Origin: Eledone cirrhosa | Lineage: Eukaryota | Direction of reading: 5' to 3' | NCBI GenBank assembly: GCA_964016885.1 | Contig: OZ024750.1 | Span: 41,726,001-41,790,000, forward strand | DNA length: 64,000 nucleotides | Shown here: positions 1 through 38,876 of the stretch, in pieces | Layout: the number at the start of each line of letters is the position of its first letter | How positions within the stretch are numbered: the stretch's first letter is position 1 | Program-made: the position numbers and the translations under genes | Notes under the pieces: generated by a model | Seen by the model: the letters and a program-made list of their open reading frames with translations, nothing else | Databases searched by the model: none | Told to the model about the DNA's origin: nothing

Positions 1-3000
1 ACACCCCACTCTAGGTGGTATATCTCAGCTGTGGCAGGGAGTGACAGACATAAACCCCAGTCTTGGTGGTATATCTCAGCTGTGGCAGGGACTGCCAGAC
101 TCTACACCCCAGTCTAGCTGGTATATCTCAGCTGTGGTGGGGAGTGACAGACTCTACACCCCAGTCTAGGTGGTATATCTCAGCTGTGGTAGGGAGAGTT
201 AGACTCTACACCCCAGTCTAGGTGGTATATCTCAGCTGTGGTGGGGACTGACAGACTCTACACCCCAGTCTAGCTGGTATATCTCAGCTGTGGTAGGGAG
301 TGACGTACTCTACACCCTAGTCTAGGTGGTATATCTTAGCTGTGGTAGGGTGTGACAGACTCTACACCCCAGTCTAGCTGGTATATCTCAGCTGTGGTAG
401 GGAGTGACAGACTCTACACCCTAGTCTAGGTGGTATATCTCAGCTGTGGTAGGGAGTGACAGACTCTACACCCCAGTCTAGGTGGTATATCTCAGCTGTG
501 GTGGGGAGTGACAGACTCTACACCCCACTCTAGGTGGTATATCTCCACTGTGGTAGGGAGTGACAGACTCTACACCCCAGTCTAGGTGGTATATCTCAGC
601 TGTGGTAGGGAGTGACAGACTCTACACCCCAGTCCAGGTGGTATATCTCAGCTGTGGTAAAGAGTGACAGACTCTGCACCCCAGTCTAGGTGGTATATCT
701 CAGCTGTGGTGGGGAGTGACAGACTCTACACCCCAGTCTAGGTGGTATATCTCAGCTGTGGCAGGGAGTGACAGACTCTACACCCCAGTCTAGGTGGTAT
801 ATCTCAGCTGTGATAGGCAGTGACAGACTCTACACCCCAGTCTAGGTGGTATATCTCAGCTGGGAGTGACAGACTCTACACCCCAGTCTAGGTGGTATAT
901 CTCAGCTGTGGTAGGGTGTAACAGACTCTACACGCCAGTCTAGGTGGTATATCTCAGCTGTGGTAGGGAGTCACAGACTCTACACCCCAGTCTAGAGGGT
1001 ATATCTCAGCTGTGGTAGGGAGTGACAGACTCTACACCCCAGTCTAGGTGGTATATCTCAGTTGTGGTAGGGAGTGACAGATTCTACACCACAGTCTAGA
1101 GGGTATATCTCAGCTGTGGTAGGGAGTGGCAGACTCTACACCCCAGTCTAGGTGGTATATCTCAGCTGTGGTAGGGAGTGACAGACTCTACACCCCGGTC
1201 TAGGTGGTATATCTCAGCTGTGGTAGGGAGTGACAGACTCCACACCCCAGTCTAGGTGGTATATCTCAGCTGGGAGTGAAAGACTCTCCACCCTAGTCTA
1301 GAGGGTATATCTCAGCTGTGGTAAGGAGTGACAGATTCTACACCCCAGTCTAGGTGGTATATCTCAGCTGTGGTAGGGAGTGTCAGACTCTACACCCCAG
1401 TCTAGGTGGTATATCTCAGCTGTGGTAGGGAGTGACAGACGCTACACCCCAGTCTAGGTGGTATACCTCAGCTGTGGTAGAGAGTGACAGACTCCACACC
1501 CCAGTCTAGGTGGTATATCTCAGCTGTGGTAGGGAGTGACAGACTCTACACCCCAGTCTAGGTGGTATATCTCAGCTGTGGCAGGGAGTGACAGACTCTA
1601 CACCCCAGTCTAGGTGGTATATCTCAGCTGTGGTAGGAAGTGACAGACTCTACACCCCGGTCTAGGTGGTATATCTCAGCTGTGGTAGGGAGTGACAGAC
1701 TTTACACCCCAGTCTTGGTGGTATATCTCAGCTGTGGTAGGGAGTGACAGACTCTACACCCCACTCTAGGTGGTATATCTCAGCTGTGGTACTGAGAGGT
1801 AGACTCTACACCCCAGTCTAGGTGGTATATCTCAGCTGTGGTGGGGACTGACAGACTCTACACCCCAGTCTAACTGGTATATCTCAGCTGTGGTAGGGAG
1901 TGACAGACTCTACACCCTAGTCTAGGTGGTATATCTCAGCTGTGGTGTGGAGTGACAGACTCTACACCCCAGTCTAGGTGGTATATCTCAGCTGTGGCAG
2001 GGAGTGACAGACTCCACCCCCCAGTCTAGGTGGTATATCTCAGCTGTGGTGGGGAGTGACAGACTCTACACCCCACTCTAGGTGGTATATCTCAGCTGTG
2101 GCAGGGAGTGACAGACATAAACCCCAGTCTTGGTGGTATATCTCAGCTGTGGCAGGGACTGACAGACTCTACACCCCAGTCTAGCTGGTATATCTCAGCT
2201 GTGGTGGGGAGTGACAGACTGTACACCCCAATCTAGGTGGTATATCTCAGCTGTGGTAGGGAGAGTTAGACTCTACACCCCAGTCTAGGTGGTATATCTC
2301 AGCTGTGGTGGAGACTGACAGACTCTACACCCCAGTCTAGCTGGTATATCTCAGCTGTGGTAGGGAGTGACGGACTCTACACCCTAGTCTAGGTGGTATA
2401 TCTTAATTGTGGTAGGGAGTGACAGACTCTACACCCCACTCTAGGTGGTATATCTCAGCTGTGGCAGGGAGTGACAGACATAAACCCCAGTCTTGGTGGT
2501 ATATCTCAGCTGTGGCAGGGACTGACAGACTCTACACCCCAGTCTAGCTGGTATATCTCAGCTGTGGTGGGGAGTGACAGACTCTACACCCCAGTCTAGC
2601 TGGTATATCTCAGCTGTGGTAGGGAGAGTTAGACTCTACACCCCAGTCTAGGTGGTATATCTCAGCTGTGGTGGGGACTGACAGACTCTACACCCCAGTC
2701 TAGCTGGTATATCTAAGCTGTGGTAGGGAGTGACGGACTCTACACCCTAGTCTAGGTGGTATATCTCAGCTGGTGGTAGGGAGTGACAGACTCTACACCC
2801 CAGTCTAGCTGGTATATCTCAGCTGTGGTAGGGAGTGACAGACTCTACACCCTAGTCTAGGTGATATATCTAAGCTGTGGTAGGGAGTGACAGACTCTAC
2901 ACCCCAGTCTAGGTGGTATATCTCAGCTGTGGTGGGGAGTGACGGACTCTACACCCTAGTCTAGGTGGTATATCTTAATTGTGGTAGGGAGTGACAGACT

Positions 3001-6000
3001 CTACACCCCTCTCTAGGTGGTATATCTCAGCTGTGGCAGGGAGTGACAGACATAAACCCCAGTCTTGGTGGTATATCTCAGCTGTGGCAGGGACTGACAG
3101 ACTCTACACCCCAGTCTAGCTGGTATATCTCAGCTGTGGTGGGGAGTGACAGACTCTACACCCCAGTCTAGCTGGTATATCTCAGCTGTGGTAGGGAGAG
3201 TTAGACTCTACACCCCAGTCTAGGTGGTATATCTCAGCTGTGGTGGGGACTGACAGACTCTACACCCCAGTCTAGCTGGTATATCTAAGCTGTGGTGGGG
3301 AGTGACAGACTCTACACCCCACTCTAGGTGGTATATCTCAGCTGTGATAGGGAGTGACAGACTCTACACCCCAGTCTAGGTGGTATATCTCAGCTGTGGT
3401 GGGGAGTGACAGACTCTACACCCCAGTCTAGGTGGTATATCTCAGCTGTGGTAGGGAGAGGTAGACTCTACACCCCAGTCTAGGTGGTATATCTCAGCTG
3501 TGGTTGGGAGTCACAGACTCTAAACCCCAGTCTAGCTGGTATATCTCAGCTGTGGTAGGGAGTGACAGACTCTACACCCCAGTCTAGGTGGTATATCTCA
3601 GTTGTGGTAGGGAGTGACAGATTCTACACCACTGTCTAGAGGGTATATCTCAGCTGTGGTAGGGATTGGCAGACTCTACACCCCAGTCTAGGTGGTATAT
3701 CTCAGCTGTGGTAGGGAGTGACAGACTCCACACCCCAGTCTAGGTGGTATATCTCAGCTGGGAGTGACAGACTCTACACCCCAGTCTAGGTGGTTTATCT
3801 CAGCTGTGGTAGGGAGTGGCAGACACTACACCCCAGTCTAGGTGGTATATCTCAGCTGGGAGTGAAAGACTCTCCACCCCAGTCTAGAGGGTATATCTCA
3901 GCTGTGGTAAGGAGTGACAGATTCCAAACCCCAGTCTAGGTGGTATATCTCAGCTGTGGTAGGGAGTGTCAGACTCTACACCCCAGTCTAGGTGGTATAT
4001 CTCAGCTGTGATAGGGAGTGACAGACGCTACACCCCAGTCTAGGTGGTATACCTCAGCTGTGGTAGAGAGTGACAGACTCCACACCCCAGTCTAGGTGGT
4101 ATATCTCAGCTGTGGTAGGGAGTGACAGACTCTACACCCCAGTCTAGGTGGTATATCTCAGCTGTGGCAGGGAGTGACAGACTCTACACCCCAGTCTAGG
4201 TGGTATATCTCAGCTGTGGTAGGAAGTGACAGACTCTACACCCCGGTCTAGGTGGTATATCTCAGCTGTGGTAGGGAGTGACAGACTTTACACCCCAGTC
4301 TTGGTGGTATATCTCAGCTGTGGTGGGGAGTGACAGATTCTACACCCCAGTCTAGGTGGTATATCTCAGCTGTGGTAGTGAGAGGTAGACTCTACACCCC
4401 AGTCTAGGTGGTATATCTCAGCTGTGGTGGGGACTGACAGACTCTACACCCCAGTCTAGCTGGTATATCTCAGCTGTGGTAGGGAGTGACAGACTCTACA
4501 CCCTAGTCTAGGTGGTATATCTCAGCTGTGGTGTGGAGTGACAGACTCTACACCCCAGTCTAGGTGGTATATCTCAGCTGTGGCAGGGAGTGACAGACTC
4601 CACCCCCCAGTCTAGGTGGTATATCTCAGCTGTGGTAGGGAGTAACAGACTTTACACCCCAGTCTTGGTGGTATATCTCAGCTGTGGTGGGGAGTGACAG
4701 ATTCTACACCCCAGTCTAGGTGGTATATCTCAGCTGTGGTAGTGAGAGGTAGACTCTACACCCCAGTCTAGGTGGTATATCTCAGCTGTGGCAGGGAGTG
4801 ACAGACATAAACCCCAGTCTTGGTGGTATATCTCAGCTGTGGCAGGGACTGCCAGACTCTACACCCCAGTCTAGCTGGTATATCTCAGCTGTGGTGGGGA
4901 GTGACAGACTCTACACCCCAGTCTAGGTGGTATATCTCAGCTGTGGTAGGGAGAGTTAGACTCTACACCCCAGTCTAGGTGGTATATCTCAGCTGTGGTG
5001 GGGACTGACAGACTCTACACCCCAGTCTAGCTGGTATATCTCAGCTGTGGTAGGGAGTGACGGACTCTACACCCTAGTCTAGGTGGTATATCTTAGCTGT
5101 GGTAGGGAGTGACAGACTCTACACCCCAGTCTAGCTGGTATATCTCAGCTGTGGTAGGGAGTGACAGACTCTACACCCTAGTCTAGGTGGTATATCTCAG
5201 CTGTGGTAGGGAGTGACAGACTCTACACCCCAGTCTAGGTGGTATATCTCAGCTGTGGTGGGGAGTGACAGACTCTACACCCCACTCTAGGTGGTATATC
5301 TCAGCTGTGGCAGGGAGTGACAGACTCTACACCCCAGTCTAGGTGGTATATCTCAGCTGGGAGTGACAGACTCTACACCCCAGTCTAGGTGGTATATCTC
5401 AGCTGTGGCAGGGAGTGACAGACTCTACACCCCAGTCTAGGTGGTATATCTCAGCTGTGGTAGGGAGTGGCAGACTCTACACCCCAGTCTGGGTGGTATA
5501 TCTCAGCTGTGGTAGGGAGTGACAGACTCTACACCCCAGTCTAGGTGGTATATCTCAGCTGTGGTAGGGAGTGACAGACTCCACAGCCCAGTCTAGGTAG
5601 TATATCTCAGCTGGGAGTGACAGACTCTACACCCCAGTCTAGAGGGTATATCTCAGCTGTGGTAAGGAGTGACAGACTCTACACCCCAGTCTAGGTGGTA
5701 TATCTCAGCTGTGGTGTGGAGTGACAGACTCTACACCCCAGTCTAGGTGGTATATCTCAGCTGTGGCAGGGAGTGACAGACTCCACCCCCCAGTCTAGGT
5801 GGTATATCTCAGCTGTGGTGGGGAGTGACAGACTCTACACCCCACTCTAGGTGGTATATCTCAGCTGTGGCAGGGAGTGACAGACATAAACCCCAGTCTT
5901 GGTGGTATATCTCAGCTGTGGCAGGGACTGCCAGACTCTACACCCCAGTCTAGCTGGTATATCTCAGCTGTGGTGGGGAGTGACAGACTCTACACCCCAG

Positions 6001-9000
6001 TCTAGGTGGTATATCTCAGCTGTGGTAGGGAGAGTTAGACTCTACACCCCAGTCTAGGTGGTATATCTCAGCTGTGGTGGGGACTGACAGACTCTACACC
6101 CCAGTCTAGCTGGTATATCTCAGCTGTGGTAGGGAGTGACGTACTCTACACCCTAGTCTAGGTGGTATATCTTAGCTGTGGTAGGGTGTGACAGACTCTA
6201 CACCCCAGTCTAGCTGGTATATCTCAGCTGTGGTAGGGAGTGACAGACTCTACACCCTAGTCTAGGTGGTATATCTCAGCTGTGGTAGGGAGTGACAGAC
6301 TCTACACCCCAGTCTAGGTGGTATATCTCAGCTGTGGTGGGGAGTGACAGACTCTACACCCCACTCTAGGTGGTATATCTCCACTGTGGTAGGGAGTGAC
6401 AGACTCTACACCCCAGTCTAGGTGGTATATCTCAGCTGTGGTAGGGAGTGACAGACTCTACACCCCAGTCCAGGTGGTATATCTCAGCTGTGGTAAAGAG
6501 TGACAGACTCTGCACCCCAGTCTAGGTGGTATATCTCAGCTGTGGTGGGGAGTGACAGACTCTACACCCCAGTCTAGGTGGTATATCTCAGCTGTGGCAG
6601 GGAGTGACAGACTCTACACCCCAGTCTAGGTGGTATATCTCAGCTGTGATAGGCAGTGACAGACTCTACACCCCAGTCTAGGTGGTATATCTCAGCTGGG
6701 AGTGACAGACTCTACACCCCAGTCTAGGTGGTATATCTCAGCTGTGGTAGGGTGTAACAGACTCTACACCCCAGTGTAGGTGGTATATCTCAGCTGTGGT
6801 AGGGAGTGGCAGACTCTACACGCCAGTCTAGGTGGTATATCTCAGCTGTGGTAGGGAGTCACAGACTCTACACCCCAGTCTAGAGGGTATATCTCAGCTG
6901 TGGTAGGGAGTGACAGACTCTACACCCCAGTCTAGGTGGTATATCTCAGTTGTGGTAGGGAGTGACAGATTCTACACCACAGTCTAGAGGGTATATCTCA
7001 GCTGTGGTAGGGAGTGGCAGACTCTACACCCCAGTCTAGGTGGTATATCTCAGCTGTGGTAGGGAGTGACAGACTCTACAACCCGCTCTAGGTGGTATAT
7101 CTCAGCTGTGGTAGGGAGTGACAGACTCCACACCCCAGTCTAGGTGGTATATCTCAGCTGGGAGTGAAAGACTCTCCACCCTAGTCTAGAGGGTATATCT
7201 CAGCTGTGGTAAGGAGTGACAGATTCTACACCCCAGTCTAGGTGGTATATCTCAGCTGTGGTAGGGAGTGTCAGACTCTACACCCCAGTCTAGGTGGTAT
7301 ATCTCAGCTGTGGTAGGGAGTGACAGACGCTACACCCCAGTCTAGGTGGTATACCTCAGCTGTGGTAGAGAGTGACAGACTCCACACCCCAGTCTAGGTG
7401 GTATATCTCAGCTGTGGTAGGGAGTGACAGACTCTACACCCCAGTCTAGGTGGTATATCTCAGCTGTGGCAGGGAGTGACAGACTCTACACCCCAGTCTA
7501 GGTGGTATATCTCAGCTGTGGTAGGAAGTGACAGACTCTACACCCCGGTCTAGGTGGTATATCTCAGCTGTGGTAGGGAGTGACAGACTTTACACCCCAG
7601 TCTTGGTGGTATATCTCAGCTGTGGTGGGGAGTGACAGACTCTACACCCCACTCTAGGTGGTATATCTCAGCTGTGGTAGTGAGAGGTAGACTCTACACC
7701 CCAGTCTAGGTGGTATATCTCAGCTGTGGTGGGGACTGACAGACTCTACACCCCAGTCTAACTGGTATATCTCAGCTGTGGTAGGGAGTGACAGACTCTA
7801 CACCCTAGTCTAGGTGGTATATCTCAGCTGTGGTGTGGAGTGACAGACTCTACACCCCAGTCTAGGTGGTATATCTCAGCTGTGGCAGGGAGTGACAGAC
7901 TCCACCCCCCAGTCTAGGTGGTATATCTCAGCTGTGGTGGGGAGTGACAGACTCTACACCCCACTCTAGGTGGTATATCTCAGCTGTGGCAGGGAGTGAC
8001 AGACATAAACCCCAGTCTTGGTGGTATATCTCAGCTGTGGCAGGGACTGACAGACTCTACACCCCAGTCTAGCTGGTATATCTCAGCTGTGGTGGGGAGT
8101 GACAGACTGTACACCCCAATCTAGGTGGTATATCTCAGCTGTGGTAGGGAGAGTTAGACTCTACACCCCAGTCTAGGTGGTATATCTCAGCTGTGGTGGA
8201 GACTGACAGACTCTACACCCCAGTCTAGCTGGTATATCTCAGCTGTGGTAGGGAGTGACGGACTCTACACCCTAGTCTAGGTGGTATATCTTAATTGTGG
8301 TAGGGAGTGACAGACTCTACACCCCACTCTAGGTGGTATATCTCAGCTGTGGCAGGGAGTGACAGACATAAACCCCAGTCTTGGTGGTATATCTCAGCTG
8401 TGGCAGGGACTGACAGACTCTACACCCCAGTCTAGCTGGTATATCTCAGCTGTGGTGGGGAGTGACAGACTCTACACCCCAGTCTAGCTGGTATATCTCA
8501 GCTGTGGTAGGGAGAGTTAGACTCTACACCCCAGTCTAGGTGGTATATCTCAGCTGTGGTGGGGACTGACAGACTCTACACCCCAGTCTAGCTGGTATAT
8601 CTAAGCTGTGGTAGGGAGTGACGGACTCTACACCCTAGTCTAGGTGGTATATCTCAGCTGGTGGTAGGGAGTGACAGACTCTACACCCCAGTCTAGCTGG
8701 TATATCTCAGCTGTGGTAGGGAGTGACAGACTCTACACCCTAGTCTAGGTGATATATCTAAGCTGTGGTAGGGAGTGACAGACTCTACACCCCAGTCTAG
8801 GTGGTATATCTCAGCTGTGGTGGGGAGTGACAGACTCTACACCCCACTCTAGGTGGTATATCTCAGCTGTGGTAGGGAGATACAGACTCTACACCCCAGT
8901 CTAGGTGGTATATCTCAGCTGTGGTGGGGAGTGACAGACTCTACACCCCAGTCTAGCTGGTATATCTCAGCTGTGGTAGGGAGTGACAGACTCTACACCC

Positions 9001-11767
9001 CAGTCTAGGTGGTATATCTCAGCTGTGGTAGGGAGTGATAGACTCTACACCCCAGTCTAGGTGGTATATCTCAGCTGTGGTAGGGACTGACAGACTCTAC
9101 ACCCCAGTCTAGGTGGTATATCTCAGCTGTGGTAGGGAGTGATAGACTCTACACCCCAGTCTAGGTGGTATATCTCAGCTGTGGTAGGGAGTGACAGACT
9201 CTACACCCCAGTCTAGGTGGTATATCTCAGCTGTGGTAGGGAGTGATAGACTCTACACCCCAGTCTAGGTGGTATATCTCAGCTGTGGCAGGGAGTGACA
9301 GACTCTACACCCCAGTCTAGAGGGTATATCTCAGCTGTGGTAGGGAGTGACAGACTCTACACCCTAGTCTAGGTGGTATATCTCATCTGTGGTGGGGAGT
9401 GACAGACTCTACCCCCCAGTCTAGGTGGTATATCTCAGCTGTGGCAGGGAGTGACAGACTCCACACCCCAATCTAGGTAGTATATCTCAGCTGTGGTGGG
9501 GAGTGACAGACTCTACACCCCACTCTAGGTGGTATATCTCAGCTCTGGCAGGGAGTGACAGACATAAACCCCAGTCTTGGTGGTATATCTCAGCTGTGGT
9601 AGGGAGTGACAGACTCTACACCCCAGTCTAGGTGGTATATCTCAGCTGTGGTAGGGAGTGGCAGACTCTACACCCCAGTCTGGGTGGCATATCTCAGCTG
9701 TGGTAGGGAGTGACAGACTCTACACCCCAGTCTAGGTGGTATATCTCAGCTGTGGTAGGGAGTGACAGACTCCACACCCCAGTCTAGGTGGTATATCTCA
9801 GCTGGGAGTGACAGACTCTACATCCCAGTCTAGAGGGTATATCTCAGCTGTGGTAAGGAGTGACAGACTCTACACCCCAGTCTAGGTGGTATATCTCAGC
9901 TGTGGTAGGGAGTGACAGACTCTACACCCTAGTCTAGGTGGTATATCTCAGCTGTGGTGTGGAGTGACAGACTCTACACCCCAGTCTAGGTGGTATATCT
10001 CAGCTGTGGCAGGGAGTGACAGACTCCACACCCCAGTCTACGTGGTATATCTCAGCTGTGGTGGGGAGTGACAGACTCTACACCCCACTCTAGGTGGTAT
10101 ATCTCAGCTGTGGCAGGGAGTGACAGACATAAACCCCAGTCTTGTTGGTATATCTCAGCTGTGGCAGGGACTGACAGACTCTACACCCCAGTCTAGCTGG
10201 TATATCTCAGCTGTGGTGGGGAGTGACAGACTCTACACCCCAGTCTAGGTGGTATATCTCAGCTGTGGTAGGGAGAGTTAGACTCTACACCCCAGTCTAG
10301 GTAGTATATCTCAGCTGTGGTGGGGACTGACAGACTCTACACCCCAGTCTAGCTGGTATATCTCAGCTGTGGTAGGGAGTGACGGACTCTACACCCTAGT
10401 CTAGGTGGTATATCTCAGCTGTGGTAGGGAGTGACAGACTCTACACCCCAGTCTAGCTGGTATATCTCAGCTGTGGTAGGGAGTGACAGACTCTACACCC
10501 CAGTCTAGGTGGTATATCTCAGCTGTGGTGGGGAGTGACAGACTCTACACCCCAGTCTAGCTAGTATATCTCAGCTGTGGTAGGGAGTGACAGACTCTAC
10601 ACCCCAGTCTAGGTGGTATATCTCAGCTGTGGTAGGGAGTGATAGACTCTACACCCCAGTCTAGGTGGTATATCTCAGCTGTGTTAGGGATTGACAGACT
10701 CTACACCCCAGTCTAGGTGGTATATCTCAGCTGTGGTAGGGAGTGATAGACTCTACACCCCAGTCTAGATGGTATATCTCAGCTGTGGTAGGAAGTGACA
10801 GACTCTACACCCCAGTCTAGGTGGTATATCTCAGCTGTGGTAGGGAGTGATAGACTCTACACCCCAGTCTAGGTGGTATATCTCAGCTGTGGCAGGGAGT
10901 GACAGACTCTACACCCCAGTCTAGAGGGTATATCTCAGCTGTGGTAGGGACTGACAGACTCTACACCCTAGTCTAGGTGGTATATCTCAGCTGTGGTGGG
11001 GAGTGACAGACTCTACACCCCAGTCTAGGTGGTATATCTCAGCTGTGGCAGGGAGTGACAGACTCCACACCCCAGTCTAGGTAGTATATCTCAGCTGTGG
11101 TGGGGAGTGACAGACTCTACACCCCACTCTAGGTGGTATATCTCAGCTGTGGCAGGGAGTGACAGACATAAACCCCAGTCTTGGTGGTATATCTCAGCTG
11201 TGGTAGGGAGTGACAGACTCTACACCCCAGTCTAGGTGGTATATCTCAGCTGTGGCAGGGAGTGACAGACTCTACACCCCAGTCTAGCTGGTATATCTCA
11301 GCTGTGGTAGGGAGTGACAGACTCTACACCCTAGTCTAGGTGGTATATCTCAGCTGTGGTGGGGAGTGACAGACTCTACACCCCAGTCTAGGTGGTATAT
11401 CTCAGCTGTGGCAGGGAGTGACAGACTCCACACCCCAGTCTAGGTAGTATATCTCAGCTGTGGTGGGGAGTGACAGACTCTACACCCCACTCTAGGTGGT
11501 ATATCTCAGCTGTGGCAGGGAGTGACAGACATAAACCCCAGTCTTGGTGGTATATCTCAGCTGTGGTAGGGAGTGACAGACTCTACAGCCCAGTCTAGGT
11601 GGTATATCTCAGCTGTGGTGGGGACTGACAGACTCTACACCCCAGTCTAGGTGGTATATCTCAGCTGTGGTGGGGAGTGACAGACTCTACACCCCAGTCT
11701 AGGTGGTATATCTCAGCTGGGAGTCACAGACTCTACACCCCAGTCTAGGTGGTATATCTCAGCTGTG
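1..11767. repeat. 52-bp satellite array (~225 copies, runs off the window start)
   Basis: Tandem unit ACAGACTCTACACCCCAGTCTAGGTGGTATATCTCAGCTGTGGTAGGGAGTG with recurrent 51-bp (ACATAAACCCC) and shorter (CAGCTGGGAG) variants; ends at ...CAGCTGTG 11767. Confidence 0.98.
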
Positions 11768-13992: not shown

Positions 13993-16900
13993 ATCATCAT
14001 CATCATCATCATCATCATTTTACGTCCGCTTTTCCCTGCTTGCAAGGGTGGGACGGGTCTTATTCAGCACAGCATCTCTCCACTCGTCACGGTCCCTCGT
14101 CATCTCCACCGTGAGCTTCAATGATCTGAGGTCTGTTCTCACCACCTCCGCCCATGTTTTTCGTGGTCTACCTCTACCACGTCTTCCCTCAACTGGCATT
14201 TCCTGGCACTTCTTCACCCATCGGTCATCCTCCATGCGCATCACATGTCCATACCACCTCAGTCTCCTCTCCCGTACACTACATTCTATCCCTCTCAGAC
14301 ACAGTTTCTCTCTCAACACATTTATGCTGGGTCGTTCACGCACATTTACACTGCACATCCAACGGAGCATGCTTGCCTCATTTCTCTCCAGCCGTCGCAT
14401 ATCCTCTGCGGTTGCTGCCCATGTCTCACTACCATGCAGCATCGCGCTCCTCACACAGGCATCATACAACCGGCCTTTCGTATGCAGGGAGAAACCCTTC
14501 TTCGTCAACAGAGGAAGCAGCTCCCTAAACTTCTTCCAACCCGTCCTTATTACTATGGCCTCGGAACACCCTCCTCCCATGCTAATCTGATCTCCTAGGT
14601 ACCGGAAGCTATCCACCACTTCTATAGCGCCCTCTCGCATTTGAAAAATGTGTCTATCAGTGCGACTTCTACTGTCTAATTTCCCTGTACATCTACTGCA
14701 TACATATTTCTCCCTACCTGTTAGTTTGCCTGCTATCCCGCTACATCTCTTGTGTACCCAGGACCTGCATTGTGTGCATTTTATAGAATTTATGCCAGTT
14801 CCTTTTCTGCAAATCGAACATGGCCATTTCCCTGACGGAATCAGGGTTTTGTCCTCTTTTCTACTCATCAACACTTTTGTCTTAGCTAGATTTACTCTCA
14901 GTCCTCTTGCTTCCAACTGCTGTTTCCATAGCCGGAATTTATTCTCTAGCTCCTCTACTGATTCTGCCATAAGAGCCAGATCGTCAGCATAGAGAAGTTC
15001 CCATGGACAGCCAGTCTTAAACTCCTCTGTTATGGCTTGGAGGACTATAATGAACAAGAGCGGGCTGAGGACCGAACCCTGATGTACTCCTACTTGTATC
15101 TGGAATTCCTCACTAAACTCCATTCCTACTCTGACTTTACTGAGAGTACCTCTGTACAAAGTTTGCACTGTCCTCACAAGCCATTCCTCAACACCCAGCT
15201 TCCTTAGGGACCACCAGATGACAGATCGGGGTACCCTATCAAAGGCCTTCTCTAGGACAACAAAGGCTAAGTATAGTGGCTTATTCTTCTCTAAGAACCT
15301 CTCTTGCATTTGTCTCACCAAGAAGAGGGCATCTGTTGTACTCTTCCCAGGCACAAAACCAAACTGCTTTCTCATCTAGTTTGACCCTTTCTCTAATTAG
15401 TTGTGCTAAAATCCTTTCTGCCACTTTCATAACCTGATCTATCAGCTTTATACCCCTATAATTGCTCCTCTCCAAAGCATCCCCTTTACCTTTGTAGCAA
15501 TTTATGAGAATACTGCTGCACCAGTCTTTGGGTATGACACCACCATATATAGCCTGATTGATGATGCGTGCAACCAGTTTAGTGCCTACGTCCCCTGATG
15601 CCTTCAGCATCTCAGCAACTATTCCCGATGGTCCGGCCGCCTTACCATTCTTCATTTCCCTAATCGCCTCTTGGACCCTATATTCGTCAATCTCAATAGC
15701 TGGTCCCTCTGTCGGATCTACCAAGGGTAATTTCTCTCTCTCCCATTCGTTCTCCACATTCATCAGTCTCTCATAATGACATTTCCAGGCCTCCTTTTTC
15801 TGGTCATTCATGACACTAAGTACACCGGCATCATCCCGGACACATTTATCACCAACAACATCCTGATTTGCATTGACACACTGCCTTGCAATGTGGAACA
15901 CCGCACGCCTCTGATCTTCCCGTCGCAGAACATTGGCAAACTTCCTACTCTCTGCCTCCCTGCGTGCTAAGTACACCTGACGTCTAGCTTCTCTCTTAGT
16001 GGCTGTATATTCTTCCCTACTCCCACCCTTTTTCCAAGCCTTCCATGCTAGTCTTTTGTCTCTAATAGCCTTATCTACTGTGCTGTTCCACCACCAGGTC
16101 ACTCTCTGTCTGGTTGGAGCTCTGCTCCAGCCACAGGTTTCATCAGTAGCCTGCAGCAAGTTGTCACGTAAGAACTTCCAGTTATTATCTATGTCATACG
16201 TCTCTAAATCGTCTTCTTTTTCGTCATATACATCTTGAAGGGCTTTCCTAAATTTGAATTTTAGTGAAAGGTCTTTTAGCTTCCAGACCTTTCTTCTCCA
16301 CACCTTCCTATATGTCTCATTCCATCTCTTGCTTACTGAGATATCACTAACAACTAACCTATGCTGTGGGGTACATTCTTCCCCAGGGTATGCCTTGGTA
16401 TTAGACACTATCTGCCTGTCCCGCTGCCTAACTAGCAGGAAGTCAATCTGGCTTATGTGCTCACCAGATTTGTAGGTTATTAGGTGATTGGCAGGTTTCT
16501 GGAAGTTTGTGTTGCAAATAGTCAATGTACTTGCATCACAAAATTCAAGAAGTCTCACTCCTTTTTCATTTCTTGAACCGTAACCGTGCCCACCATGTAC
16601 CCCAGTGTAATCATCCTGGAGCTGTCCAACATGACCATTGAAGTCTCCTGCTAGCATAACGATGTCTCCGTCCTCTGTCATTGTGGTTGTTTGCAAGAGT
16701 TGCTCATAAAAGCAGTCTTTCTCATCTTTGCCTAGGCCTGCTTGGGGAGCATAGACCGAGATGATTGTCAGTAGTCTCCTACCTACAACTAATCTAAGCT
16801 TAATTATTCGATTACTAACTCGAACTACCTCTATTGTCTTATTGATCCATTTCTCAGCCAGGAAAATGCCTACTCCCCCTAACCCATCATCCTTACCTAC

Positions 16901-35092: not shown

Positions 35093-36318
35093 GGGCTGGT
35101 TACAGCCGGTTTGAACAGAAAGAGGTGAGAGAATCCTGGCTGGTTACAGCCGGTTTGAACAGAAAGAGGTGAGAGAATCCTGGCTGGTTACAGCTGGTTT
35201 GAACAGAAAGAGGTGAGAGAATTCTGGCTGGTTACAGCCGGTTTGAACAGAAAGAGGTGAGACAATTCTGGCTGGTTACAGCCGGTTTGAACAGAAAGAG
35301 ATGAGATAATTCTAGCTGGTTACAGCCAGTTTGAACAGAAAGAGGTGAGAGAATTCTGGCTGGTTACAGCAGGTTTGAACAGAAAGAGGTAAGAGAATTC
35401 TGGCTGGTTACAGCCGGTTTGAACAGAAAGAGGTGAGAGAATTCTGGCTGGTTACAGCCGGTTTGAACAGAAAGAGGTGAGAGAATTCTAGCTGGTTACA
35501 GCCGGTTTGAACAGAAAGAGGTGAGAGAATTCTGGCTGGTTACAGCCGGTTTGAACAGAAAGCGGTGAGAGAATTCTGGCTGGTTACAGCCGGTTTGAAC
35601 AGAAAGAGGTGAGATAATTCTAGCTGGTTACAGCCGGTTTGAACAGAAAGAGGTGAGAGAATTCTGGCTGGTTACAGCCGGTTTGAACAGAAAGAGGTGA
35701 GAGAATCCTGGCTGGTTACAGCCAGATTGAACAGAAAGGGGTGAGAGAATTCTGGCTGGTTACAGCCGGTTTGAACAGAAAGAGGTGAGAGAATTCTGGC
35801 TGGTTACAGCCGGTTTGAACAGAAAGAGGTGAGAGAATTCTGGCTGGTTACAGCCGGTTTGAACAGAAAGAGGTGAGAGAATTCTGGCTGGTTACAGCCG
35901 GTTTGAACAGAAAGAGGTGAGAGAATTCTGGCTGGTTACAGCCAGTTTGAACAGAAAGAGGTGAGAGAATTCTGGCTGGTTACAGCCGGTTTGAACAGAA
36001 AGAGGTGAGAGAATCCTGGCTGGTTACAGCTGGTTTGAACAGAAAGAGGTGAGAGAATTCTGGCTGGTTACAGCTGGTTTGAACAGAAAGAGGTGAGAGA
36101 ATCCTGGCTGGTTACAGCTGGTTTGAACAGAGAGAGGTGAGAGAACTCTGGCTGGTTACAGCCAGTTTGAACAGAGAGAGGTGAGAGAATCCTAGCCGGA
36201 TACAGCCGGTTTGAACAGAAAGAGGTGAGAGAATCCTGGTTGGTTACAGTCAGTTTGAACGGAAAGAGTTGAGAGAATTCTGGCCGGATATGGTCGGTTT
36301 AAATGCTAAATGGTTAAT
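35093..36318. repeat. 44-bp minisatellite (~27 copies), ending in ..GGTTAA
   Basis: Unit CTGGCTGGTTACAGCCGGTTTGAACAGAAAGAGGTGAGAGAATT. Confidence 0.97.
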
Positions 36319-36677
36319 GAGCAGGATTATTCTAAAAAATTAGAAATTCAACAGTCGAAGCTAAAATATTTCAAACTCACTAGTGTAAAGAATGTCACCT
36401 GCAATACATTAGAACTCTCAAAGATTTAAATTAGAAATAAAATAAAACTGAAATTGCTGTTCCCTTGTCTTTATGTTGAACATGAAGTCCTGGTTTCTCT
36501 CTCTTTCTATGTGTGTGTATGTGTGTGTGTCATAGACGTTTTAGCATCTGCTTTCCCTGCTATGCACATACACACACACATACACATATATATAGATATA
36601 AGTGTCTGCGTGTGTGTGTATATATGTATATATATATATCATAGTCGTTTTAGCATCTGCTTTCCCTGCCATGCATA

Positions 36678-36747
<70 letters not shown>

Positions 36748-36787
36748 GTAATAAACGACAGATATATTACTTTATATCATCTCTATT

Positions 36788-36865
36788 TATTTCATTATAT
36801 ATATTTCGAAGATGTAAAGTTTTATGTATAACATAAACCAAAACATGTCCTCTTCAGACAAAATA
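36788..36865 (-). ncRNA. Putative minimal type-I hammerhead ribozyme (HHR-1)
   Basis: Minus strand: UAUUUUGU-CUGAAGA-GGACAUGU..UUUAUGU uau ACAUAAA..ACAUCUUC-GAAA-U-AUAU-AUA/AUGAAAUA. Stems I and II pair; helix III is minimal with a palindromic loop. Confidence 0.65.
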
Positions 36866-37103
36866 TATAGAAAATGTATAATTTGTTCCTGATATGCTTG
36901 GAGACAAACGAACAGGACAGATCGGTGACCACCAAGCATATGATTAGAAAAACCTCAACACATAAGGGGATTACGTGACTGGGAGAAAACATTACAGTTG
37001 GTTTAAACGTTTCATAAATTATTTAAAATATAGCGTAATTAGATTGGTAAAAAAAAAAAAATTTTTAAAAAGATTGACCATTATTCAGTCCTAATCACTT
37101 ATA

Positions 37104-37326
37104 CAGGGTGGGCCAGAATTCATGACTCACTTGAGTCAGGAATTATTAAAAAATAAAAATATGAATTATTAAGAAATATAAATTATTAAGAAATAAAAAT
37201 GTAAATTAAGAAACCTGCTGAGCATATTAAGAAATAAAATAATAAATTAAAACAATACAAGTACAATAAAATAAGCATGTTAAGAAATATAACTAACAAG
37301 CGAGTCATGAATTCTGGCCCACACTG
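37104..37326. mobile_element. Tc1/mariner-type MITE, 223 bp
   Basis: 30-bp TIRs CAGGGTGGGCCAGAATTCATGACTCACTTG / CAAGCGAGTCATGAATTCTGGCCCACACTG (2 mismatches); TA at 37102-37103 and 37327-37328; AT-rich non-coding interior. Confidence 0.92.
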
Positions 37327-37806
37327 TAGATAGGTATCAAATCAAAAGTATATATTGTTTCAGGAATATTCTGTTAAGACAGGAATAATATTATTATTAT
37401 GGAGAAATAATAATAAAAGGGAAAAATATTGAAACAATTGTTAATACTTTGAATAAACTCTATTGTACAGCTGATCATGTTATACTTCACTTATTTACTA
37501 TATATATATATATATATACACACACACATATCTCTTTTACTCTTTTACCTGTTCCATCCATCCAGCTGAGTCAATGCTGGGGCACCGCCCTTGTTTATAT
37601 ATATATACATATATATATAACCAAAGATTAATATGGTTCGTTGATTATTCAACGAATACAATTTTAAAATAGATTAGAAGCACTCGACAGTGGATTTTCC
37701 TGGAGTATTTAATATTATTCAAAATATTAATAAAGGAAAAATATTCACATAAACAATACTGGAATTGAATAATCAAAACCGTAGCGGTATGTCGCATATC
37801 AAATCT

Positions 37807-37873
37807 TATATTTTGTCTGATGAAAACGTACTTAAACACCATTGTACCTTTGAAATATGTATAATAAAATATA
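37807..37873 (+). ncRNA. Putative minimal type-I hammerhead ribozyme (HHR-2)
   Basis: UAUAUUUUGU-CUGAUGA(37817-23)-AAAcGUAC..GUACcUUU-GAAA(37852-55)-U-AUGU-AUA/AUAAAAUAUA; 10-bp stem I with one G-U pair. Confidence 0.65.
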
Positions 37874-37915
37874 TATTTGGATTATGAGAATATTTTTCAT
37901 TTATTAATATTTTGA

Positions 37916-37955
<40 letters not shown>

Positions 37956-37981
37956 GTATGTAAATATATATATACATATAT

Positions 37982-38027
37982 AACCCATGCTAGCGTGGAA
38001 GAACGGACGTAAAACGGTGATGATGAT
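37982..38027 (+). mobile_element. Isolated 3' tail of the RTE-tailed SINE
   Basis: AACCCATGCTAGCGTGGAAGAACGGACGTAAAACGGTGATGATGAT, nearly identical to ~17478-17523; (AT)n on both sides. Confidence 0.85.
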
Positions 38028-38069
38028 ATATATATATCAAAATGAAAATCCGAAGGCAAGGTAAAATTC

Positions 38070-38158
38070 CAATCATTTAATCACGACACATGTTTCAATA
38101 AGAGATAGATCGATTGTGAAGCCATGATCGATTATCACTGATCTCATCAGATGAAAAT
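38070..38158 (-). ncRNA. Putative type-I hammerhead ribozyme, left arm (HHR-3)
   Basis: Mirror of HHR-4: CUGAUGA at 38150-38144, GAAA at 38096-38093, GUC at 38087-38085. Confidence 0.6.
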
Positions 38159-38237
38159 AACGATGTTCTCTCACAGAATTCATTCCCTCTCTGAGAGAAC
38201 ATCGTTATTTTTCTCCCTCATATCAAGAATTTGAAGA

Positions 38238-38332
38238 CAATTCATTTTCACCTGATGAGATCAGTGATAATCGATCATGGCTTCACAATCGATCTATCTC
38301 TTATTGAAACATGTGTCGTGATTAAATGATTG
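38238..38332 (+). ncRNA. Putative type-I hammerhead ribozyme, right arm (HHR-4)
   Basis: UCAUUUUCAC-CUGAUGA(38252-58)-long stem II (GAU/AUU, GAUA/UAUC, AUCGAU/AUCGAU)-GAAA(38306-09)-C-AUGU-GUC(38315-17)/GUGAUUAAAUGA. Confidence 0.7.
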
Positions 38333-38559
38333 GAATTTTACCTTGCCTTCGGTTTTTCATTTTGATACCTATACTCCGTTTTACATCATCTAGCTGTTCC
38401 CTTGAATGGAATTGGAGATATACAAAAGCGTGGAGAACTTAATATTGCTAACATAAAGTTATTGGACCATTTTACACAACCAATAATACACCTTACTATA
38501 TAACAACTATATATATATATATATAATTGGTGTTTGAACATCTGCTTTCCTTGCTCCCA

Positions 38560-38643
<84 letters not shown>

Positions 38644-38876
38644 GTATATATATATATACATATGTATATATATATATACATATGTATATATATATATATA
38701 CATATGTATATATATATATATATATATACATACATACATATACATATGAACAAATATATATAATCATTATAATTTTATGCCCACTTTCCACGGTTGCCCC
38801 CCCCCCTCTTCCCTCCACACCGAGCTATTCTTTGCCTCAATGTAATTTCTAAACTTACAAACACATACAGCTTTTC

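Follow-up and report, generated by a model that had tools for sequence, protein, structure and literature searches.

Satellites occupy positions 1-11767 and 41445-64000 of the window, by which we mean the whole 64-kb stretch of DNA analysed here; their units are of 52 bp (228 copies) and 40 bp (564 copies), and several minisatellites lie between the two large arrays. A near-complete LINE at 14020-16900 on the minus strand encodes an AP-endonuclease (PF14529) and a reverse transcriptase (RT; PF00078, with a PHD-like insert); it is broken into two frames and is unrelated to the hammerhead ribozymes described below, which form a patch in a short non-satellite interval.

Hammerhead motifs and insertions in the window

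A strict descriptor scan (stem I of at least 4 bp, CUGANGA, stem II of at least 3 bp, GAAA, N-4 nt-N', UH) found exactly four type-I hammerheads in the 64-kb window, and all four have the CUGANGA/GAAA/UH core with three helices and an open stem I. Hammerhead A (36788-36865, minus strand) carries CUGAAGA and the helix III U-AUAU-A, with predicted cleavage after 36796. Hammerhead B (37807-37873, plus strand) carries CUGAUGA and U-AUGU-A, with predicted cleavage after 37863. Hammerhead C is present twice, at 38070-38158 on the minus strand (helix III C-AUGU-G, a U-G first pair in stem I, predicted cleavage after 38085) and at 38238-38332 on the plus strand (predicted cleavage after 38317). An earlier, sequence-only reading of this DNA had placed hammerhead folds at these four sites; the scan recovers every one, and the four cleavage positions predicted then are the same as ours. 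That reading had counted four folds of three sequences. The four motifs stand, while the independent insertions number only three: 38029-38158 and 38244-38373 form an inverted repeat of 130 nt with 97% identity, so that a single insertion supplies both the hammerhead at 38070-38158 and that at 38238-38332, one in each arm.

We give practically no credence to the idea that the motifs are chance folds in AT-rich sequence. The region has about 30% GC, and none of the 34 matches from an Rfam scan of the window (E≤1) was a hammerhead, the scan giving microsatellite noise only, both of which would suit chance; but the strict descriptor matched 0 of 2000 dinucleotide shuffles of 36301-38540 and none of 10 shuffles of 400 kb, a relaxed descriptor found one match in a share of 0.001 of the same shuffles of 36301-38540, and the hammerhead core is conserved across at least eight family clusters. 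The shuffle tests already refute the chance explanation. Hammerheads of the type found in Penelope-like elements (PLEs), with a long stem II, may lie outside the Rfam hammerhead models. The minimum-energy fold of the minus-strand copy at 38070 is not a hammerhead.

Insertion A (36746-37425, minus strand) is the 5'-truncated 3' end of a putative Hydra-type PLE, with its short end in (TA)n. It matches other copies over 36745-37103 and 37322-37425 and is split by a MITE-like insertion (37104-37326), flanked by TA and bounded by terminal inverted repeats of 25 bp, which is not part of the PLE. It has one arm only, in contrast to insertions B and C, which each have two inverted arms.

In insertion B, the inverted arm (37618-37752, minus strand) has the long end with a tail of ~94 nt and is truncated short of the hammerhead; the tail includes a bulged hairpin, hairpin 1 (37682-37706, minus strand; ACUC-CAG ... 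CUG-UC-GAGU), 5 nt past the short-end site. The sense arm (37754-37916, plus strand) has the short end and continues into (TA)n. A short fragment of another common repeat lies at 37981-38027, between insertions B and C, and was also seen at loci L017, L022 and L052.

In insertion C, the inverted arm (38035-38188, minus strand) has the short end and an internal deletion of ~37 nt, judged by eye against other copies, that trims distal stem I. The other arm (38190-38508, plus strand) has the long end, with a 141-nt tail at 38368-38508 that continues into (TA)n, and in this tail hairpin 1 (38373-38436, plus strand) has an expanded inner loop. An A/T difference between the short and long arms was set aside, being peculiar to the window copy and not family-wide. 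Comparison of 36700-38560 with three contig runs of one sample gave deep repeat cover and no piece across the junctions.

The sequence-only reading had called these hammerheads minimal and had seen helix III covary between copies. Neither description held: the stem II domains measure 43 nt (A), 28 nt (B) and 47 nt (C), with pairing confined to the first 3 bp and a distal helix, and the covariation is between families. Helix III consists of 1 bp plus an A-U pair. The 95 distinct hammerheads across the loci examined fall into eight clusters of at least three members and six singletons, and all eight clusters have a self-complementary sequence as their most frequent helix III hexamer (83/89 copies; UAUGUA, CAUGUG, UAUAUA and a UGCGCA variant), where the outer pair is required by the scan and the inner four bases would be self-complementary by chance at ~0.16. 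Tables of stem pairs depend on the scan in the same way and do not count as independent evidence of pairing.

Hammerheads with a single-pair helix III and a palindromic loop are described as cleaving poorly as monomers and better as dimers (PMC7229834, PMC6765202). The 1-bp helix III with a self-complementary loop predicts that monomers cleave slowly and that cleavage depends on dimers, and by analogy the window-type hammerheads probably act as dimers. In homodimer cofolding, copy A and the plus-strand C copy alone formed a helix III duplex, with competing pairings present, and we attach no weight to this result. Lying on opposite strands, the two C copies would not dimerise in cis; RNA transcribed through the pair would instead fold into a long duplex, and the ribozymes in the window stubs are probably idle.

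Protein-coding relatives and genomic background

No PLE-type ORF was found in the 64-kb window by tblastn, in agreement with the earlier statement that neither a PLE RT nor a GIY-YIG ORF is visible there, and the window pieces are indeed non-coding fragments. That reading had proposed looking for neighbouring PLE ORFs at other copies, and these were found for all three families; the first four family B copies examined had no ORF, and the link came from other loci. RT and, at the C-terminus, a GIY-YIG-type endonuclease (EN) occur in one ORF linked to the hammerhead repeat, every ORF copy examined being broken by stops or frameshifts. Continuity from EN to hammerhead was seen at independent loci over 1.6-2.0 kb in family A (76-82%), 0.6 + 1.5 kb in family B (87%) and 2.2 + 1.3 kb in family C (88-93%).

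Family C is represented by a full unit at L061, with the order pLTR - ORF - ~1.45-kb 3' UTR - pLTR in direct orientation over 4506 nt. The N-terminus of its ORF reads RRMRWKAFH and HADKTNN, so that the RWK and DKT motifs are both present. The inverted arrangement, with RT and EN, is seen at L063. At L064, a family C 3' end has a different Hydra-type ORF (2441-4990, minus strand) upstream of it, ~52% identical to the RT of family C, either by nested insertion or as a chimera.

Family B is co-linear from EN to hammerhead at L138 and L142, and at L083 its long end leads into the start of an ORF that reads SDKTNN, where DKT is present and the RWK region has decayed. At L139 (1-950), a PLE of another clade, with a two-cysteine EN and a canonical-looking GIY-YIG region, shares the locus with a family B end. 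Family A is co-linear from EN to hammerhead at L071, L146 and L147; its EN ORF has decayed, and the DKT/RWK region lies beyond the sequence seen.

The EN of all three families has the CxCx5C linker, CxxC and CxH, a single Cys between the GIY- and YIG-equivalent positions, and no CCHH. By ESM Atlas comparison, the RT part is similar to RVT_1/HTH_animal clusters of eukaryotes (score 0.97), while Pfam gave no RT match and only a weak GIY-YIG match (E 0.02) in one related ORF. Among the copies, direct and inverted pLTRs, 5' truncation and one-sided tails were all seen. The Hydra clade is described as C-terminal EN+ PLEs with a (TA)n target and canonical hammerheads, and includes Hydra-1_Obim from an octopus (Craig et al. 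2021, PMC8557442); the present families combine ends in (TA)n, and in family A also in (ATT)n-like tracts, with canonical hammerheads. Families A, B and C are thus assigned, by motifs and domain order rather than by a tree, as probable Hydra-type C-terminal EN+ PLE families, apparently uncatalogued. Naiad and Chlamys, which have an N-terminal EN and no canonical hammerhead, were ruled out by the C-terminal EN and canonical hammerheads, and Neptune was set aside on the CxCx5C linker and the absence of CCHH.

Very probably, then, the window motifs are pLTR hammerheads of three Hydra-type Penelope families, left by three 5'-truncated insertions into (TA)n that likely arose by target-primed reverse transcription from two internal sites. 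The proposal of PLE-type hammerheads from terminal repeats, with a helix III of 1 bp and a self-complementary loop, has thus gained families linked to RT/EN ORFs, and its companion, that the elements are non-autonomous, is not supported, all three families being tied to an RT/EN ORF at other loci. The window pieces are 5'-truncated pLTRs of protein-coding PLE families and not a separate non-autonomous class. It is improbable that they are instead non-autonomous retrozymes or mini-elements, copied by way of short circular RNAs with borrowed PLE proteins. The window copies and many of the top matches are 300-500 nt long and non-coding, a 1-bp helix III with a palindromic tetraloop is described as typical of amphibian retrozymes (PMC7229834), and a 2026 preprint derives retrozymes from pLTRs (bioRxiv 10.64898/2026.07.22.740005); against this, the 5' ends are not the same in all copies and reach co-linearly into 3' UTR and ORF, and the long end, where it continues, leads into an ORF start. 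No head-to-tail array of short units of the retrozyme type was found in the loci examined or, by TRF (score ≥1000), in the window. Short copies of these PLEs could nonetheless be re-mobilised in trans.

A first-look search of the 3.0-Gb genome gave 2180 candidates for family C, 1388 for A and 2883 for B. Among the 40 scored in each family, near-full-length matches show 97-99% identity in C, 85-93% in A and 82-97% in B. Copies terminate in (TA)n, or for family A also in (ATT)n-like tracts, and have variable 5' ends. Hammerheads are common: the strict scan of arbitrary DNA (40 stretches of 10 kb, 400 kb in all) found 11, in 9 of the 40 stretches, which extrapolates with wide error to ~80,000 motifs genome-wide, and this genome likely contains tens of thousands of Hydra-type Penelope elements. 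In 348 kb next to 108 copies belonging to A, B or C, there are 23 hammerheads of other families, a density of 6.6 per 100 kb as against 2.75 in arbitrary DNA (~2.4x). Within the window, 11 of the 44 (TA) tracts of at least six units fall in 36300-38800. This high background and the (TA)n-rich patch together make the cluster an effect of a shared target, and by a hand estimate hundreds of such hammerhead triplets are expected genome-wide. The patch had been called a landing zone; the (TA)n richness and the ~2.4x density bear this out in a modest sense only.

The cluster is ordinary and without sign of host function. That the host has selected a ribozyme array here, such as an RNA-processing module, is accordingly very improbable: the three insertions within 1.6 kb are the sole hammerhead matches in the window and 20 kb of flanking sequence, as such an array might be, but the background (11 per 400 kb, and 6.6 per 100 kb beside other copies) and the concentration of (TA) tracts speak against it, as do copies that differ in age (C 97-99%, A 85-93%), occupy both strands and show ordinary decay (the MITE insertion, the deletion).

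Elsewhere, hammerhead-bearing ends often lie in or beside ORF remnants of other Hydra-type families (L006, L018, L063, L083 and others), which suggests repeated insertion into (TA)n made by earlier copies.

Two 3' ends, paired arms and bulged hairpins

The Penelope RT is the sister of telomerase, and open questions in PLEs include how the start of copying is chosen and why inverted insertions carry a tail at one end. In the present families there are two discrete 3' ends; for family C these are at window positions 38367 (short) and 38508 (long). Family C yielded 24 outward-facing arm pairs, one of them at a locus edge, and all 23 classifiable pairs combine a short with a long end (22 called by script, plus the window pair, whose left arm the script mislabelled and which was classed by eye). 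Sixteen of the 23 were retrieved by a query without the tail, and one locus with two inward-facing long ends was left out of the count. In family B, the script scored 22 of 23 classifiable pairs as short+long, and the exception reads as a diverged long tail; 16 of the pairs come from loci found with a query that spans both ends, and an unbiased query gave 5/5 mixed pairs. The two arms of family B agree at a subfamily site in 21/21 insertions (15 T/T, 6 C/C).

Arm spans in family C run from 300 to 3798 nt, so that junction positions vary widely, with spans of ~340-350 nt in 10 of the 24 pairs. Family C inversions often join at or near a palindromic stretch ~60 nt upstream of the hammerhead (window 38159-38215), which may be a preferred stop or fold-back site.

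In about ten families, the tail opens with a bulged hairpin, ACUC-CRG ... YYG-NN-GAGU, and a second stem follows further on. In 16 tails, 92% of cells pair, compared to 25-59% in slid controls; 13 cells are changed on both sides, compared to 3.9 in shuffles (reached by 0 of 500), and four pairs show two-sided change, compared to 2.7 (reached by 65 of 500). The tails were chosen with a pattern and are related by ancestry, which makes the test partly circular, and the covariation is modest. The short end lies 5 nt before hairpin 1 in family C (window coordinates) and 4 nt before it in two small families; in family B, 5 nt is the commonest distance (9/22) and 15/22 fall at 3-6 nt, the distance being scorable by script in some families only.

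Hairpin 2 is known only from the three read-through loci and folds past the long end in two of them. At L061 (family C), GCUC...GAGC begins 4 nt past the long end, and at L083 (family B) a clean GCUC-CC...GG-UA-GAGC follows it, both folding at ~-5 kcal/mol; at L117 (family C), the site has a substitution and does not fold. A twin-hairpin scan up to 260 nt from the cleavage site gave no match. An Rfam scan matched no family to the tail, and a literature search covering passages of open-access papers and few supplements found no description of such hairpins. The two hairpins are likely start signals for reverse transcription.

The Poseidon protein is reported to nick both strands in vitro and to start reverse transcription on an uncleaved RNA template at two internal sites, which delimit a tail of 30-40 nt (PMC11167929). 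By analogy with the in vitro behaviour of Poseidon_Ac (PMC11167929), the RT/EN protein of the present families would bind element RNA that covers the pLTR and the ORF start, and its endonuclease would nick both strands of the self-complementary (TA)n target. One nicked strand would prime ~5 nt before hairpin 1 and give the short end; the other would prime close to the ORF start, ~4 nt before hairpin 2, and give the long end with its tail. Both cDNAs would extend back across the intact hammerhead, end prematurely and be joined head-to-head, which would yield B and C as seen in the window. Since the hammerhead lies 50-190 nt upstream of the putative starts, even very short copies retain it, and cDNAs that traverse it imply a template RNA that is uncleaved or re-ligated. 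Strict short+long pairing goes beyond what the in vitro data predict, since the PAc start sites were found to have no strand difference (Frangieh et al., PMC11167929).

Inverted pLTRs with a one-sided tail are known, and self-priming or endonuclease resolution has been proposed for them (PMC8557442, PMC3846280). From the same PLE origin, fold-back self-priming could have produced the inverted arm, and endonuclease resolution the one-sided tail, an account that we consider rather unlikely and that is a live alternative for the inversion. It has been put forward in both of those papers, many family C copies have a palindromic stretch at the inversion junction, and the 21/21 concordance of arms is explained just as well if one arm was copied from the other. 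Against it, a short arm cannot template a long arm, the junction positions are widely variable (spans of 300-3798 nt), and in the Poseidon_Ac study genomic tail ends were mapped to two in vitro RT starts (PMC11167929). The more specific form of the two-start reading is that a twin bulged-hairpin signal (RCUC-C...G-NN-GAGY) fixes two RT starts ~95-140 nt apart and that one integration uses both, one per nicked (TA)n strand, from the same RNA; we give it an even chance. If true, it would explain the PLE signature of an inverted repeat with one tail.

Relation to known elements

These results extend the known association of hammerheads with PLEs to three Hydra-type families, including a young one whose copies are 97-99% identical. 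What is new is a longer, structured tail in new families of a known clade, and the two-start reading is a testable novelty: a long tail between two conserved hairpins, with strict short+long pairing, opens the questions of PLE starts and inversions to a Poseidon-type assay.

As described for the Hydra clade (PMC8557442), the present families have RT followed by a C-terminal GIY-YIG-type EN, with RWK, DKT, CxCx5C and CxxC/CxH and no CCHH, a (TA)n target, a hammerhead near the 3' end, and tandem or inverted pLTRs with a one-sided tail. The published Hydra hammerheads, including that of Hydra-1_oBim (PMC8557442, file S2), are of other sequence, with a short stem II and a helix III of 3-4 bp, whereas here stem II has 26-47 nt and helix III is 1 bp with a self-complementary tetraloop. 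The family C unit, at 4.5 kb with a 1.45-kb 3' UTR, is longer than the <3 kb given for Hydra elements generally, a descriptive figure (PMC8557442), and the tails of ~95-140 nt exceed the 30-40 bp published for PLEs.

Amphibian retrozymes share with the window the type-I hammerhead with a single-pair helix III and a palindromic tetraloop (axolotl HHR_Amex1 type; Cervera and de la Pena 2020, PMC7229834), and the reported dimer dependence of HHR_Amex1-type hammerheads (PMC7229834) is likewise predicted here. Retrozymes are tandem non-coding units of 170-400 nt, whereas the present copies are dispersed, variably truncated ends of ORF-bearing elements.

The closest experimental parallel is Poseidon_Ac (Frangieh et al. 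2024, PMC11167929), which likewise has two discrete 3' ends downstream of a hammerhead with a tail between them, and an AT-rich target. PAc uses an uncleaved RNA template (PMC11167929), and we infer the same here. The Poseidon_Ac starts are described as free of strand bias and as lying inside the ORF at a stem-loop that is AC-rich, and the tail there measures 30-40 nt (PMC11167929), whereas in the present families both ends are found upstream of the ATG, with a bulged hairpin 4-5 nt further on, and are paired strictly as short and long.
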